DNA of 64,000 nucleotides from a virus, in IMG/VR virus record IMGVR_UViG_3300045988_141926, positions 64,380-128,379 of that record, one strand, 5' to 3'. Made by a program: the position numbers and the translations under genes. The stretch's first letter is position 1. The number at the start of each line of letters is the position of its first letter. Shown here in pieces: positions 13,354 through 51,146 of this stretch. The notes under the pieces were generated by a model, which saw only the letters and a list, made by a program, of their open reading frames with translations, searched no databases and had not been told where the DNA came from.

Positions 13354-13432
13354 TATAATGAGATAAGTCATTTGACTTATCTCTTTTTTTTTGTTATAAT
13401 TTAAATAGAATTAGATTATAAGGAGATTTAAA

Positions 13433-14134
13433 ATGTATAATCAAATTATTGAAGAATTAGAAGCTCTTAAATAGCATTTTGATGATGAAGATATTGTATC
13501 ATATCAATTACTCTTAATTAAAATTAAGAAAATTATTGATTTAATTAATGATAAACAACTTGAGGAAGCAGATAAAGGCAAATTATCTAATTATATTCGA
13601 GATTATTTAGCAAGTTTGCATTTAAATAGAATTTTTACAATTTCTGATTTAAATGAATTATTTATTCCAGAAGTGAAAGATTTAGATATTGGTAATAAAA
13701 ATATTTATATTACAATTTTTAATTTATTCGTGGAAGAATTATCTGATGTAGATAATATTTTTTCTCAAAAACTTAAATATTGTATTACAAATATGATTTC
13801 TAGAATTGCTACTTCTGTGGATGAAGCAATGATCGCAGAAGATAAAACTCAAGAAACTGTAGTTAGTGAACCTGTTCAAATTATTCCAACTATAAATACA
13901 GTAAATACTAATTCATTCGATTTGGATATTGATATTACTAATAAAAATTATTTGAAAGAATATATTATGCGTAAAAATTTAAAACCTTATAGATGTGATA
14001 TTTGTGGATTAAGTTCTTGGCAAAACAATCCTCTTATGCTATATTTATATAGTAAAAATCATATTTATTCAAATAAAAATTTAGAAAATCTGATGTTTTT
14101 ATGCCCTAATTGCTATTCTCAGATTGGAGAGTAA
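13433..14134 (+). CDS. HNH endonuclease (TAG read as sense; 1 in-frame TAG)
   Basis: C-terminal CDICG..WQ..NHIYSNKNLENLMFLCPNCYSQ HNH motif; frame continuous with ORF 13616..14134 through TAG at 13472. Confidence 0.55.
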
Positions 14135-14137
14135 TTT

Positions 14138-15325
14138 ATGTATTATAATTCTTATAATTAGAATTATTTTAATGGATTAAATAAAATATTCAATAAATTT
14201 GATACTAATAATATTAATGATTATTATAATTTATTAAAATTAATATATGATATATATTTTAATGAAAATGTATTTATAATTGTTAATGATGATATAAAAT
14301 ATCAATTAGAATCAAATTTAAAATTACTTATTAAAAAAAATAATTGGTTTATAGATTTTGAACAAACTGAAAAAAATATATTAATTTCATTATTTATTAT
14401 AATTACTTAGAAAATTAATTTTGGAAATTATTATCAAATTAATAATACATTAAAACAATAGATTGAATCATTATTATTAGATAAAAATTTAATTAATGAA
14501 AAAATGATTCATGATAGTAAAAATGTTTTTCATTTAGTTGATAGTTTTCCTGAAAATGAAAGTATGATTAAATTTTTTAAGCAATATAATATTGATATTA
14601 TGAATTAGGAATTTTTAACTATTGGTGATACAAAAATTCCTAATTTTTATTTAAAACAAAAAAATAAAATGATAGATCATTATTATGAATTTTGTCATTT
14701 ATTATTTAAAATTTATAGTCCAATTTTATATTATGGTGTTTCATTTGAAGAAGGATATGAATATAAAATAACTGATAAAGATATTGTATTCGATTGTGGC
14801 GGAAATATGGGACTATTTGCGCTATACTGTGCTTCAAAAGGCGCACGAGTATATTGTTTTGAGCCTATGTCTTATATTAGAGATTTTTTATATGAGAGTC
14901 AAAAATTATATCCTGATTTAATCCATATTATTCCTTGTGGAGTGTCTAATAGAAATTAGGAACAATATTTTTCTCAAACCTATAATCCAGGAGCTGGATC
15001 GAATTCAATATTTCATGAATTAGAATATACATCTGATAGATTATATAAAGAAAAATGTAAGTTAATTACATTAGATTCATTTAGTTAGAATAATCATATT
15101 GTTCCTACATTTATTAAAGCAGATATTGAAGGGTCTGAAGCACAAATGCTTGAAGGCGCTTCACAAATTTTACAAACATATAAACCAACTATGAATATTT
15201 GTTTAAATCATCGGATGGAAGACCAATATAATATTCCTACCCTTATTTATAATACCAATTCTAATTATTCATTTTATTATTTTATTGAAGGAGAAATACA
15301 TTCTAAATTTGTATTGTGTAAATAA
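14138..15325 (+). CDS. FkbM-family methyltransferase (several in-frame TAG)
   Basis: VFDCGGNMGLFALYCASKGARVYCFEP and KADIEGSE motifs typical of FkbM MTases; same frame as ORF 14669..14959. Confidence 0.5.
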
Positions 15326-15327
15326 AT

Positions 15328-16281
15328 ATGCCAAATATTATTTTAACAGAATATTGTAATCTTCAATGTCCTTATTGTTTTGCTAGTAAAATGATTGAAG
15401 AAAAAACAGATAATACAAAAAATATTTCTATTGAATAGTTAGATAAAATTTTAAAATGGTTATTACCTTCAGCAACGAATTTAGATCGGATTGGATTAAT
15501 TGGAGGAGAACCCACTTTACATCCTTAGTTTAGAGAGATATTAGGTAGAATAAATTCATTTAATGAATTTACAAATACTTCTTCAATAGTATTTACAAAT
15601 GGAATTAATTTAAGTGAATTTTTATCTACTATTGGACCAAATATGTCAATTTTAATTAATGTAAATAAATTGACTGGTAAATCATTAAATAAACTTAATA
15701 GTGTATTAGATGAAATTAATTATTTAAGTTGGTTTAAAATTGATAAAGTTATTTTAGGATGTAATTTATACCAAAATGAAAATAATTATTCTTATTTTTG
15801 GGATGTAGTTGATAAATATCCAGATATTTCAAGAATAAGAATGTCTATTACTGCACCCAATAGCAAAGAATTAAAAGCAAATAAAGAATTGTATTATACT
15901 ATTATGAAACCTATATTATTACAATTTTTAGAAGAAACTAAAAAACGTGATATAAAAATTTCATATGATTGTAATTAGATTCCGTTATGTTTATTAAACA
16001 ATGAAGAATAGGATTTAGTAAATCAATTAGGGGAATTAAATAGTTTTTGTGAACCCGTTATAGATATTACTCCAGATTTTAAAGCTACTTGCTGTTTTGG
16101 TGTTTATGATAATCCTATTCAATGTAATGATTTTAATAATATCGAAGAATTAACTAGATATTTTAAAAATCAAATAGTAATAAAAACTATAAATAATAAC
16201 ACTTCCATGTGCAAAGATTGTAAAAAATTACAACTTGCTCAATGTCAAGGAGGATGTTTATCATTTTCTAATGTTGGGTAA
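15328..16281 (+). CDS. radical SAM protein (CNLQCPYC CxxxCxxC; 4 in-frame TAG)
   Basis: N-terminal MPNIILTEYCNLQCPYCFA; GGEPTLHP; C-terminal Cys cluster (CKDCKK..CQGGC) suggests an auxiliary-cluster domain. Confidence 0.6.
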
Positions 16282-16339
16282 GTATAAGTAATAAAGTTTT
16301 ATAATTTTTTAATTCTAAAAAAGAAGGAGGAATTTTTTT

Positions 16340-16777
16340 ATGGCAAATATTACTTATGAATTAATTTTTAAATTTACTTCTGGTAAAGAGGTAAATTTTA
16401 TTGATGAAGAACATACATTTTCTATTGTAGAAGATTATCGTTCTCCAGTTCTTTTAACCCCTCAAATGTTTGGTATTGATGATTTACGTGAGTATTATGC
16501 ATTATTATTAATTGATGGCAAACCTATGGAAGATTATGCATCAAATTATTGTAATTTTAAAAATTTTGGTAATTCTATTGTTGATTTGCTTAATAATGAA
16601 GATACTATTTCAGAAATTATTTTAAGAGATACTAATACTAAAGGAGAATATTTCCATATAAACTCTGATCAATTAGTAGGCATTGAAGCCGGCGGAGGAA
16701 CTGATAGAGGTTTTGATAATATAATGGTATATCGTATACAAATTTATTATAAAAAAGTTGGAAAAATAGGTGAGTAA
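16340..16777 (+). CDS. hypothetical protein
   Basis: 145-aa ORF without TAG. Confidence 0.45.
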   Translation: MANITYELIFKFTSGKEVNFIDEEHTFSIVEDYRSPVLLTPQMFGIDDLREYYALLLIDGKPMEDYASNYCNFKNFGNSIVDLLNNEDTISEIILRDTNTKGEYFHINSDQLVGIEAGGGTDRGFDNIMVYRIQIYYKKVGKIGE

Positions 16778-16779
16778 TA

Positions 16780-49395: not shown

Positions 49396-49525
49396 AATAT
49401 GACTCATCAAAAAAATAATAATGTTAATTTATATGAATTAACTATTCCAAAAAAATGGGCATTAGAAGTTATACCCGAAGAAGAATATGAAATGTTATTA
49501 AAAATATCTAAGGGGTGAGAAAGAA

Positions 49526-50228
49526 TTGGTTGATGAATATATAACACCAAAAATTTTTAATGATTTAAAAAATGCTATCGCTGCAGAATGCGATCGTCGA
49601 TGTTATTCAGGAAGTGTTAAAGATGCTTATGGAAGTAAAAGTGGAAAGTATCATAATCTAGTCGCTGATGAAATAATTACCACTGAAGATTATTTCCAAT
49701 ATAAAAATCCATTACAAGCTATTATTGGGACTCAAGATAGCCAACTTTCTAAAATTTTAGGAGAAAGTAGTATTTCAGCTCTTAAAGTTAGTGAAGATGT
49801 TTTAATAAAATATAAAGATTTATTTAATAAAGAAAATATTTTAATATTATAGGCATTAACTACAATATTAAAAGCTGATCCTATAACGGTTACTAATCAA
49901 GCAGGAACTCACTGTGCTGCAAGTTGTACTGGACTATGTTATTAGACTTGCACTGGTACATGTTATAATACATGTAGTGGTGGTTGTAGCGGTGGTTGTA
50001 GGGGTGGTTGCAGCGGTGGTTGTGATGGAAGTGGAGGCGGCGGTGGCGGCGATAGCAGCGGTTGTTCTGGCTGTGATAGTGGTTGTGGTGGTTTCTGTAC
50101 TGGAAGCTGTCATAGTACTTGCACTAATTCTAGCGGCTCTTGCGGTAGATGTGGAAGTGGATGCGATAGCTAGTGTGCAGAAGGATGCCGTGGAAGCGCC
50201 AGCTCAAGTAGTACAGTACCTGATTAAT
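49526..50228 (+). CDS. precursor-like protein: 108-aa N-terminal region + Cys/Gly/Ser-rich C-terminus (CSGGCSGGCRGGCSGGC...), read through 2 TAG
   Basis: frame of ORF 49526..49852 continues through TAG at 49850 into ...AASCTGLCYQTCTGTCYNTCSGGCSGGCRGGCSGGCDGSGGGGGGDSSGCSGCDSGCGGFCTGSCHSTC... Confidence 0.45.
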
Positions 50229-50239
50229 GGAGATTAAAT

Positions 50240-50806
50240 ATGAGTGTATTAACTAAAAATGAATATCTTTTAACTAAATATTTTACTGAATTGCAAATTA
50301 ATAAATCAGCTAGTGAAAATTTATGTAAAGAACTAATAGAATTATTAGATATTGGAACTGATGTATCTAATGGTTTTTTATTTAATAGATTAGCTATGAT
50401 GTTATTAGGAGAATATCTTACTAATGATGAAATATTTTTCCGCGAATATAAAAAATTAAAATTAAATGTTTATTTTTTATCTGAAGAACATATTAAAGAT
50501 ATGAAATAGCGTTTAATTGCTCTAAATCATTTGCATACTGGAGCTCTTAAAGAAGAAGTTATTCCTAATTTAAAAAATTTTATTGAAGTTATTGAAAAAT
50601 ATGATGATATAAGAGATACTACTCGTAAAGGTATTTATGTTTCTTCTCTAAGTTTTTTGTACCGTCGTAATGGATTAGCTGATGACATTGAATTTACTTA
50701 TTCTCTAATCAATAAAATTGATGCATTAGATGGTGTTTTAAATAGTGATTTTTCTATTCTAGACAATGTTTTAGGCGGAACGCCATATAATTTTGAGAGA
50801 GTTTAA
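50240..50806 (+). CDS. hypothetical protein (ORFs 50240 and 50531 joined by in-frame TAG)
   Basis: same frame, TAG at 50507. Confidence 0.4.
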
Positions 50807-50820
50807 AAGGTATAATTATT

Positions 50821-51105
50821 ATGGAAATTAAAATTCAAGATATTAATTTTATTAATGAATTACGCAATTTAAACGCATTAATAAATAGCCATAGTTCTGT
50901 TTTAACTCAATGTATTGAATCTAAATATAATATCAATAATGATAGTTTCCAAGCTTATCAAAATAAATATGATGAATATTGTAAAAGATTTAAAGAAAAA
51001 AAACAAGAATTAGAAACAAAATATATTATTCCTGTTTTAGGAACTAATATTAAATATAATTGGGAATTAAATTATGACTCTGGTATTATAACTGTTAAAA
51101 TTTAA
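50821..51105 (+). CDS. hypothetical protein
   Basis: 94-aa ORF. Confidence 0.4.
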   Translation: MEIKIQDINFINELRNLNALINSHSSVLTQCIESKYNINNDSFQAYQNKYDEYCKRFKEKKQELETKYIIPVLGTNIKYNWELNYDSGIITVKI

Positions 51106-51108
51106 TTA

Positions 51109-51146
51109 TTTAATAGGCGTATATTTTTTATACGCCTATTTTTTTT
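51109..51146 (+). terminator. rho-independent terminator (TAGGCGTATAttttttaTATACGCCTA + T-run)
   Basis: hairpin + T8. Confidence 0.6.

Follow-up and report, generated by a model that had tools for sequence, protein, structure and literature searches.

The viral record IMGVR_UViG_3300045988_141926 contains, at its positions 64,380 to 128,379, a 64,000-nt stretch (here the window, in whose own numbering positions are given) in which two compositionally distinct sets of genes alternate around an array of tRNA genes. GC content per kb is bimodal, with values of 0.17-0.29 at 13-25 kb and 0.20-0.31 at 32-36, 40-46 and 48-51 kb, versus 0.34-0.45 at 1-13 kb and 0.36-0.44 at 51-64 kb; the window averages ~36% GC, the GC-richer portion (hereafter the backbone) 42%. 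The AT-rich islands encode radical SAM, FkbM and GT8 proteins amongst others and are rich in in-frame TAG triplets, and the tRNA array includes an amber suppressor with anticodon CUA (Table 1). Related contigs reach up to 402 kb, and the source is a huge gut phage. Here we describe how this phage reads TAG, and how use of the reassigned codon is partitioned between islands and backbone.

An initial annotation, made from the sequence alone, had held every recognizable protein of the low-GC blocks to be continuous only if TAG is translated. Indeed, stop-to-stop open reading frames (ORFs) of at least 100 aa covered a fraction of 0.30 of the 13.4-25.2 kb block under code 11 and 0.99 with TAG read as sense, with corresponding values of 0.56 and 0.93 at 31.9-36.0 kb and 0.58 and 0.91 at 47.9-51.1 kb, versus 0.90 and 0.96 at 1-13.4 kb and 0.88 and 0.90 at 51.1-64 kb. 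Recoding of TGA was discarded, as reading TGA as sense brought no gain (cover of only 0.34 at 13.4-25.2 kb), and TAA as sense increased cover everywhere in AT-rich DNA and is thus uninformative as a control. Cover across 200 shuffles of the 13.4-25.2 kb block stayed at or below 6.5%. The coding frame of the 11 island 1 genes (3,779 codons) contains 60 TAG, but no TAA and no TGA, compared with 550 TAA and 247 TGA (797 together) in the two non-coding frames. Pfam domains run on over the TAG sites, namely Radical_SAM in the genes at 15328, 20365, 34215 and 48205 (and weakly in 17412), FkbM in 14138, GT8 in 24447 and the C-terminal half of 21772, SDF in 31933, Peptidase_C1 in 33383, FNT in 35434, HNH in 27048 and the Eco57I methylase domain in 44952. 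Calling with code 11 versus TAG as sense, set beforehand as the comparison that could refute translation of TAG, therefore lengthened genes and restored domains. The claim held for most low-GC proteins, but not for the ORFs at 16340-16777, 36912-37343, 42348-42761, 44362-44967 and 50821-51105, which are free of TAG. That the blocks are decaying pseudogenes, non-coding DNA or a chimeric assembly, i.e. a read-through artefact, as their fragmented look under code 11 might suggest, is refuted, with practically no probability left to it, by the in-frame stop counts, the unbroken domains, the purifying selection on island 1 described below, and the identical mosaic, low-GC/high-GC junctions included, in two independent assemblies (the 131.6-kb contig ENA ERZ1749178 and Logan SRR1761716), which rules out chimerism and is joined by close variants of the window sequence in several IMG/VR contigs.

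The amino acid inserted at TAG was assigned from ortholog codon alignments, which replaced earlier within-window paralog alignments and clade-wide BLAST searches that were too sparse or diverged for this purpose. When homologs of the radical SAM protein encoded at 20365-21768 are aligned, TAG in the window stands opposite CAA in relatives, and vice versa, at invariant glutamine columns of the family (CTNC-Q-A, WHxQ, LxxQ). When ten island genes were codon-aligned over the window and two relatives (L050 and L047), columns with TAG in one sequence and agreement between the other two showed Gln in 17 of 41 cases (background 1.3%), and wherever two sequences had TAG, the third had Gln in 8 of 11 columns. 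TAG thus aligns to residues, mainly Gln, and not to gaps; alignment to gaps or stops had been named in the initial annotation as indicative of pseudogenes. The proposed suppressor gene was found by both ARAGORN and Rfam. The tRNAs with anticodon CUA from the window and six relatives all share an unpaired 1:72 position and G73 with the clade's tRNA-Gln(UUG); these features are identity elements for glutaminyl-tRNA synthetase. The suppressor is conserved in L004, L013, L015, L018, L020, L042 and L046. No tRNA-Gln occurs in the array of the window, and relatives carry tRNA-Gln(UUG). ARAGORN labels the suppressor 'Pyl', solely on account of its anticodon; decoding of TAG as pyrrolysine or another amino acid other than Gln is nonetheless refuted and highly improbable, given the >30-fold enrichment of Gln at aligned conserved columns opposite TAG, the Gln-type acceptor end of the tRNA and the lack of pyrrolysine synthesis genes among the scanned proteins.

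Across the 68 genes of the window, 52 end in TAA, 16 in TGA and none in TAG. If TAG ended 15% of backbone genes (an assumed value), finding none among 37 would have a probability of ~0.002. The absence of genes ending in TAG implies one code (code 15) for the whole genome rather than two, in line with the code 15-like recoding put forward initially. The expectation that low-GC genes end in TAA, with TGA noted as one terminator, stood insofar as TGA closes the radical SAM gene 48205-49518 (at 49516-49518), and is to be read alongside the 16 TGA stops of the window. Together, these data show that the phage decodes TAG as glutamine via its own tRNA-CUA, and that TAG does not act as a terminator anywhere in the window.

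TAG use differs sharply between the two gene sets. We split genes at a GC content of third codon positions (GC3) of 0.25: the AT-rich genes (7,611 codons) contain 84 TAG, 12 CAG, 201 CAA, 64 TTG and 9 CTG, and the GC-richer genes (8,414 codons) 1 TAG, 152 CAG, 83 CAA, 113 TTG and 187 CTG. The yardstick for TAG:CAG was TTG:CTG, the only other synonymous pair with T or C first before a shared ending in G. In the AT-rich genes (GC3 about 0.10) the two ratios are 7.0 and 7.1, showing TAG to behave there as an unconstrained, neutral synonym for Gln. In the backbone, one TAG is seen versus about 92 predicted from the leucine ratio, a ~90-fold exclusion which, together with the bimodal GC content, bears out the sharp split between gene sets described in the initial annotation. 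Its statement that 42% GC genes lack internal TAG holds for nearly all of them, but not for gene 11472-13034, with a genuine sense TAG at 12933 past which homology to L050 runs on, nor for ORF 56869-57399, with one in-frame TAG at 56938. Among about 590 ORFs from 40-odd related loci, TAG:CAG and TTG:CTG were 1.53 and 3.95 at GC3 < 0.2, 0.09 and 2.12 at GC3 0.2-0.3, and 0.06 and 0.58 at GC3 > 0.3.

The depth of this exclusion is illustrated by a gene for a vault-like protein (window 51247-53739), whose orthologs (49-99% identical) contain no TAG in 32 of 35 cases, with 5-36 CAG each; one of the remainder has a single TAG, and two rows are apparently out of frame. CAG to TAG is a single transition, synonymous under code 15, and the lack of TAG in the backbone over deep divergence means that it is deleterious there. 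Selection is thereby shown to keep TAG out of the codon-adapted backbone, which lends support to the mechanistic separation of gene sets considered in the initial annotation. The vault-like orthologs (L005-L046) use CAG nearly exclusively (e.g. 30:0, 24:1) even at GC3 0.23, where Lys and Glu are mostly A-ending, as expected from AT bias, making the CAG bias specific to Gln; in GC-richer lineages the gene also prefers AAG and CTG. Relatives additionally encode a flotillin-like 510-aa protein, the gene for which has a CAG ratio of 31:0. The AT-rich islands employ the complementary Gln set, CAA and TAG. Judging from the bias pattern alone, the higher GC of the backbone looks like codon adaptation (AAG for Lys, CAG for Gln, CTG for Leu), presumably to the host tRNA pool. 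The islands are at the AT mutational extreme, and their proteins are shifted accordingly (enriched in I, N, L, K, F and Y and depleted in A, R, V and G), arguing for long residence of their genes in an AT-rich regime.

Comparison with relatives provided information on the age and mobility of the islands. One relative (L050) carries a homolog of island 1 at the same junction, behind the same peptidase-like and Zn-finger genes, with a GC contrast of 41-44% versus 19-27% (about 43% versus 22%) and protein identities to the window of 53-80% for the flanks and 58-78% for the island, which makes the compositional split an old one. In a second relative (L054), compared over window 7410-25288, island 1 is 97.7% identical at the nucleotide level, with a synonymous divergence (dS) of 0.079 and a ratio of non-synonymous to synonymous divergence (dN/dS) of 0.146; the values for the adjacent backbone are 92.2%, 0.349 and 0.099, respectively. 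The island dN/dS indicates purifying selection and hence functional genes, with that of the radical SAM-like gene 17412 as low as 0.013. The 4.4-fold lower island dS in the same strain pair reflects either more recent coalescence, i.e. strain exchange, or slower evolution at extreme AT.

Four further relatives (L003, L004, L013 and L018; 91-96% identical in the backbone) differ in island content. The moron-like island 5 is absent from all four; in its place they have a short intergenic spacer that carries a hairpin of its own, and the sequences align again from precisely the promoter element that precedes the vault-like gene. The cassette with the Eco57I-type methylase is present in L004 only, being absent from L003, L013 and L018, and the minus-strand insert at 40253-41110 is missing from L004, L013 and L018, with L003 having a different insert of ~4 kb at this site. 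The empty sites of all three cassettes are short intergenic spacers. The low-GC gene at 43698-44258, by contrast, occurs in all near relatives and sits behind a hairpin and signature promoter (43612-43669). Another relative has a one-gene, TAG-rich insert (GC3 0.17) that is missing from its sister. Of the endonuclease inserts, that with the HNH gene is lacking from L054, and two others split tRNA genes directly 3′ of the anticodon. tRNA-Trp(CCA), intact in L054 (17839-17913), is interrupted by an ORF (about 25321-26013, one TAG) with PD-(D/E)XK (PDDEXK_5) and helix-turn-helix domains, and tRNA-Gly(UCC), intact in L003, L004, L013 (6152-6227) and L018, by a PD-(D/E)XK (PDDEXK_5) ORF at 42348-42761. 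The tRNA-Trp insert was also considered as a group I intron, a candidate that was dropped upon finding no Rfam match at E ≤ 1. By these alignments, three islands and three endonuclease inserts are strain-variable.

Such variability, together with the low island dS and the uniformly AT-rich wider relatives (L051, 24% GC; L016 and L037), would also be expected if the islands had simply been acquired not long ago from a donor that was AT-rich and fully code-15, for instance a Lak-like megaphage, and had yet to drift in composition, with the split reflecting ancestry only. We consider pure horizontal transfer unlikely. It is at odds with the shared junction and GC contrast in L050, where island and flanks have diverged to a comparable extent, and every island-gene homolog found in relatives is AT-rich as well. 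The AT-rich relatives that were checked (LR756500, i.e. L051, and L016) are not recoded, and tblastn of radical SAM-like 17412, the best-conserved island protein, against deposited phages returned no match and hence neither a donor nor a named relative; a scan of IMG/VR with this protein alone gave one near-identical contig only. Above all, recent import leaves a TAG-free backbone under code 15 unexplained. AT-richness rather looks like the default of the clade, and the GC-richer backbone like a derived state.

A repeated element of ~45 nt, TTGAYWTTTT-N-AAAAAA-TATAATATAATATATATAGAAAGTTAAG, occurs in ~25 copies in the window, all on the plus strand, and precedes backbone genes and tRNA groups. 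About 10 of the 25 copies abut a strong hairpin (-13 to -24 kcal/mol), and IMG/VR contigs contain an exact 24-mer of the element at >117 sites. Four variable segments (40253-41110, 44263-46144, 47786-51166 and 3038-3371) have their right edges 5-45 nt from a copy, which points to recombination at element sites. The -35/-10 pair is of the E. coli/Firmicutes type, not that of Bacteroidetes, and genes have strong AGGAG ribosome-binding sites, both of which may bear on host identity. At the starts of islands 1, 4 and 5 are generic TTGAC(A/T)-N17-TATAAT sites (13372, 44314 and 47843; consensus matches only), and terminator-like hairpins bound islands 1 and 5 (13360 and 51112).

Table 1 Features of the window (positions in window numbering).
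Feature	Position	Strand	Remarks
Backbone block	1..13358	+	17 genes, GC 0.34-0.45; one sense TAG (12933), 0 TAG stops; DUF5052, M20/M28-like peptidase, Zn-finger/RING-like paralogs, small ORFs
Signature element copies	827, 3390, 4629, 7046, 8872, 10371, 25176, 26578, 26673, 28771, 36008, 36175, 38663, 41065, 41418, 41590, 42150, 43639, 44314, 46154, 51171, 53786, 57415, 60099, 62224	+	
Element copy	25176..25206	+	directly 3′ of island 1
Element copy	38663..38691	+	86 nt upstream of suppressor tRNA-CUA
Terminator-like hairpin	13360-13383	+	head of island 1, overlaps promoter-like site
Promoter-like site TTGACT-N17-TATAAT	13372-13400	+	consensus match only
Island 1	13433..25172	+	11-12 packed genes, GC 0.18-0.30, GC3 about 0.10, 60 in-frame TAG
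HNH-like gene	13433	+	island 1
FkbM methyltransferase	14138	+	island 1, Pfam
Radical SAM	15328, 20365	+	island 1, Pfam
Cys/Tyr-rich repeat protein	16780-17400	+	island 1, repeat tail CYSNCYSNRYSTRYGTCYSCYGCYGCY
Gene 17412	17412	+	island 1, sub-threshold radical SAM/Fer4_12 matches only
GT8 paralogs	21772 (C-terminal half), 24447	+	island 1, Pfam
Gene 23306	23306	+	GT8 paralog by BLAST only, no Pfam match
tRNA-Trp(CCA), split	25253..26065	+	738-nt low-GC insert 25289-26026
tRNA array	26727..43592	+	26 intact tRNA genes (ARAGORN), interleaved with islands and small ORFs
HNH endonuclease	27048..27611	+	2 TAG, within 650-bp insert 27066-27715
Island 2	31933..36030	+	also present in near relatives L102 and L074
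SDF symporter	31933-33108	+	island 2
tRNA-Ile(GAU)	33245-33321	+	inside island 2
C1 peptidase	33383-34198	+	island 2
Radical SAM	34215-35480	+	island 2, 9 TAG
FNT-like channel	35434-36030	+	island 2
tRNA-CUA, amber suppressor	38777..38850	+	ARAGORN; Rfam 52.5 bits; U1-U72 mismatch, G73
Insert	40253..41110	-	858 bp, directly 3′ of tRNA-Ser(UGA); ORF 40293-40982, 229 aa, 2 TAG, GC 0.26
tRNA-Gly(UCC), split	42283-42812	+	456-bp low-GC insert 42319..42774
Low-GC gene	43698..44258	+	weak methylase-like matches, 1 TAG
Variable cassette	44263..46144	+	ORF 44362-44967 and Eco57I-type N6 methylase 44952-46130 (1 TAG); promoter-like site 44314; right edge 10 nt from signature promoter
DUF2828/DUF7788 gene	46259..47785	+	PHROG 'RNA-binding protein', GC 0.47, 0 TAG, CAG:CAA 12:0
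Island 5	47786..51166	+	3.4-kb moron-like cassette
Promoter-like site	47843-47871	+	island 5, 12/12 consensus match
ORFs	47905-48201; 50240-50806; 50821-51105	+	island 5
Radical SAM	48205-49518	+	island 5, TGA stop
Cys-rich repeat protein	49502-50227	+	island 5, repeat tail CTGLCYQTCTGTCYNTCSGGCSGGC
Terminator-like hairpin	51112-51140	+	island 5
Backbone block	51171..64000	+	starts at signature promoter 51171; 0 TAG stops, no sense TAG besides ORF 56869-57399; other genes: Metallophos, RlaP-like nucleotidyltransferase, SHMT, RNA ligase, KTI12/AAA_33 kinase-like
MVP-shoulder/vault-like protein	51247-53739	+	830 aa, Major Vault Protein shoulder and repeat domains

The island at 13433-25172 and the segment 47905-51105 together resemble a cluster for a ribosomally synthesized and post-translationally modified peptide (RiPP), with at least two clear radical SAM genes, FkbM, GT8 paralogs and Cys/Tyr-rich repeat tails. 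Close homologs of this RiPP-like cluster were absent from deposited phages, and L047 (40-13258) carries the island 1 cluster with a YcaO gene directly upstream. Within island 1, the first ~100 aa of the product of 24447-25172 recur unchanged within the C-terminal half of that of 21772-23313, with three TAGs co-positioned (22578-23010 and 24452-24884; 66.5% identity over 239 aa overall), and the GT8 pair is by this likeness a recent internal duplication. Just upstream of the island, two backbone paralogs (7109-8851 and 11472-13034; 26% identical) with Cys-rich zinc-finger/RING-like C-terminal parts flank the peptidase-like gene. Genes for RNA repair or handling (46259-47785, 51247-53739, 57472-58269, 60161-61531 and 62742-64000) make up a neighbourhood adjoining the tRNA array. 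Also seen were a tRNA-Phe whose anticodon, AAA, is unusual, and a tRNA-like match by Rfam only (35.8 bits) and not by ARAGORN, the sites being 30086-30158 and 29873-29942.

As to lineage, a megablast search of deposited phages with 1-13.4 kb returned nothing, and the best protein match, about 41% in a single protein, was to LR756500/1/3. LR756500 was rejected as a whole-genome model, since its GC content is 24% throughout and reading it with code 15 brings no gain. Identity with Jug phages, which lack an alternative code and have a GC content of 27-30% (PMC12363816), was dismissed likewise, the window being of code 15 with a 42% GC backbone. Lak megaphages are defined by phylogeny of the large terminase subunit (TerL) and major capsid protein (MCP), at ~476-660 kb and 26-31% GC; the window, at about 36% GC, has no deposited nucleotide match and contains neither TerL nor MCP. 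Hints of T4-like domains are weak only (T4_Y16D).

Taken together, these data suggest a model, which we regard as probable, of a code-15 phage with a TAG-free, adapted backbone and AT-rich accessory islands that are gated by the suppressor and move as cassettes. The backbone (RNA-repair, RNA-binding, vault-like and small ORFs) would be expressed behind the repeated promoter element, often after a terminator hairpin, and selection would hold it free of TAG and rich in the apparently host-adapted codons AAG, CAG and CTG; being TAG-free, it would be correctly translated by naive host ribosomes. In the islands, TAG would have accumulated by drift as just another synonym for CAG and CAA. Their cargo, comprising the RiPP-like radical SAM/FkbM/GT8 cluster, transporters, a peptidase, DNA methylases and homing-type endonucleases, would yield full-length proteins only once the suppressor tRNA is present, probably along with the A/U-reading tRNAs of the phage, so that island genes may be delayed, gated or attenuated at translation. 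Since full-length products need the suppressor, islands would be useless to the host or to a suppressor-free phage. They would enter and leave intergenic sites by recombination beside the repeated promoter elements, as the variable segments partly show, and the small endonuclease ORFs would reach their sites in or next to tRNA genes by homing. The compositional split itself has an evolutionary explanation and does not require the two expression programs envisaged in the initial annotation.

Several observations weigh against this model. Sigma-70-like promoter matches occur in both gene sets, promoter-like matches in AT-rich DNA are no commoner than in shuffled sequence, and the promoter ahead of the suppressor tRNA is of the backbone type, leaving tRNA accumulation as the sole possible source of any delay. 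Neither a release-factor gene nor any other code-switch gene turned up in the window, and a slower clock at extreme AT could by itself explain the lower dS of island 1. Moreover, the window harbours no late structural or lysis genes, such that freedom from TAG may not hold uniformly for the backbone across the genome. In 80 loci sampled by the exact 24-mer of the promoter element, a tail-fibre-like ORF (GC3 0.46) has 3 TAG and a 1,032-aa ORF without PHROG match (GC3 0.26) has 11. Most high-GC ORFs with TAG in these loci look like antisense artefacts, few late-type candidates being credible, and capsid, portal and terminase genes were not identified among them. Late genes may form a third, TAG-using class outside the window.

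A serious rival, compatible with the model rather than exclusive of it, is that the partition follows expression level and not timing. Release factor 1 of the host would compete with the suppressor, suppression would be partial, and highly expressed genes would purge TAG whereas weakly expressed ones would tolerate it or use it for attenuation, with no early/late switch. The strongest codon adaptation is indeed found in probably abundant proteins (vault-like and flotillin-like), TAG density drops gradually with GC3 in relatives, and the promoter type of the suppressor fits as well. However, small and weakly biased backbone ORFs also lack TAG, and clade genes at GC3 0.2-0.3 already show the marked deficit of TAG:CAG relative to TTG:CTG (0.09 versus 2.1). 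We view expression level as a realistic explanation, albeit not the favoured one.

Going beyond the suppressor-gated model, we tentatively propose a 'code-locked' accessory pool, in which TAG cassettes would be exchanged among suppressor-carrying huge phages faster than their backbones diverge (dS 0.08 versus 0.35), with the promoter/terminator repeats as anchors and the code as both timer and firewall. If it exists, this pool would include a phage-borne RiPP-like pathway, and cassette products would be made only after tRNA-CUA and the tRNA array have been installed. More generally, partial recoding is today taken to time the expression of late and lysis genes, whereas here the partition runs between AT-rich accessory cassettes and an adapted backbone. 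The comparison of TAG:CAG with TTG:CTG offers a quantitative indication that selection acts against a reassigned codon inside a single genome, and gene callers that assume one code or one composition model for each contig will annotate genomes of this type wrongly and miss phage-borne biosynthetic clusters. In the literature that we searched, coverage of which was incomplete, we found no within-genome GC3 split matching the use of a reassigned codon, none tied to strain-variable cassettes and no such ratio test.

Code-15 gut phages (Lak, crAss-like and other clades) read TAG as Gln and are partially recoded, with late structural and lysis genes as the recoded set (10.1101/2021.08.26.457843; PMC8346664; PMC9523058), and proteomic proof of TAG decoding as Gln in phages is available (PMC9523058). 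Lak genomes have 26-31% GC overall (PMC8346664), and low GC in those reports is linked to the origin of recoding, as a genome-wide precondition only. The phage studied here shares with them in-frame TAG as Gln, a phage-encoded tRNA-CUA, a partly recoded gene set and a TAG-free, host-translatable one; the standard-code-compatible set of the late-gene recoding model of Borges et al. thus has its counterpart in the backbone and tRNA array, which are essentially TAG-free. In contrast to those phages, the TAG-bearing genes within the window have accessory roles (biosynthesis, transport, methylases and endonucleases) and a GC3 of about 0.10, and are embedded in a ~42% GC backbone.

The islands also recall known modes of phage modularity. 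PeSL terminator/promoter cassettes mediate modular shuffling in T4-type phages (PMC2839356; PMC4122927), and, like these, the window has a repeated terminator hairpin and early-type sigma-70 promoter between genes, with strain indels and replacements edged at the repeats. The element sequence (TTGAYWTTTT..TATAATATAATATATATAGAAAGTTAAG) is a different one, however, only ~10 of 25 copies have a strong adjoining hairpin, and the cargo departs sharply from the backbone in composition and in its codon set, TAG included, a trait for which PeSL cassettes are not known. With the morons of tailed phages the islands have in common insertion between genes that are adjacent in relatives and a distinct composition, and their promoter- and terminator-like consensus matches may be a further likeness; yet they comprise multiple genes (up to 11.8 kb), are carried not by a prophage but by a huge phage of virulent appearance, and need an altered code to be read. 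Finally, the gene finder Mgcod deals with phage genomes in which the genetic code changes from block to block (10.1101/2022.06.29.495998). The window likewise consists of blocks with and without a stop codon as sense, but TAG is never a stop in either, leaving a single code in two dialects that are set apart by a two-fold difference in GC.

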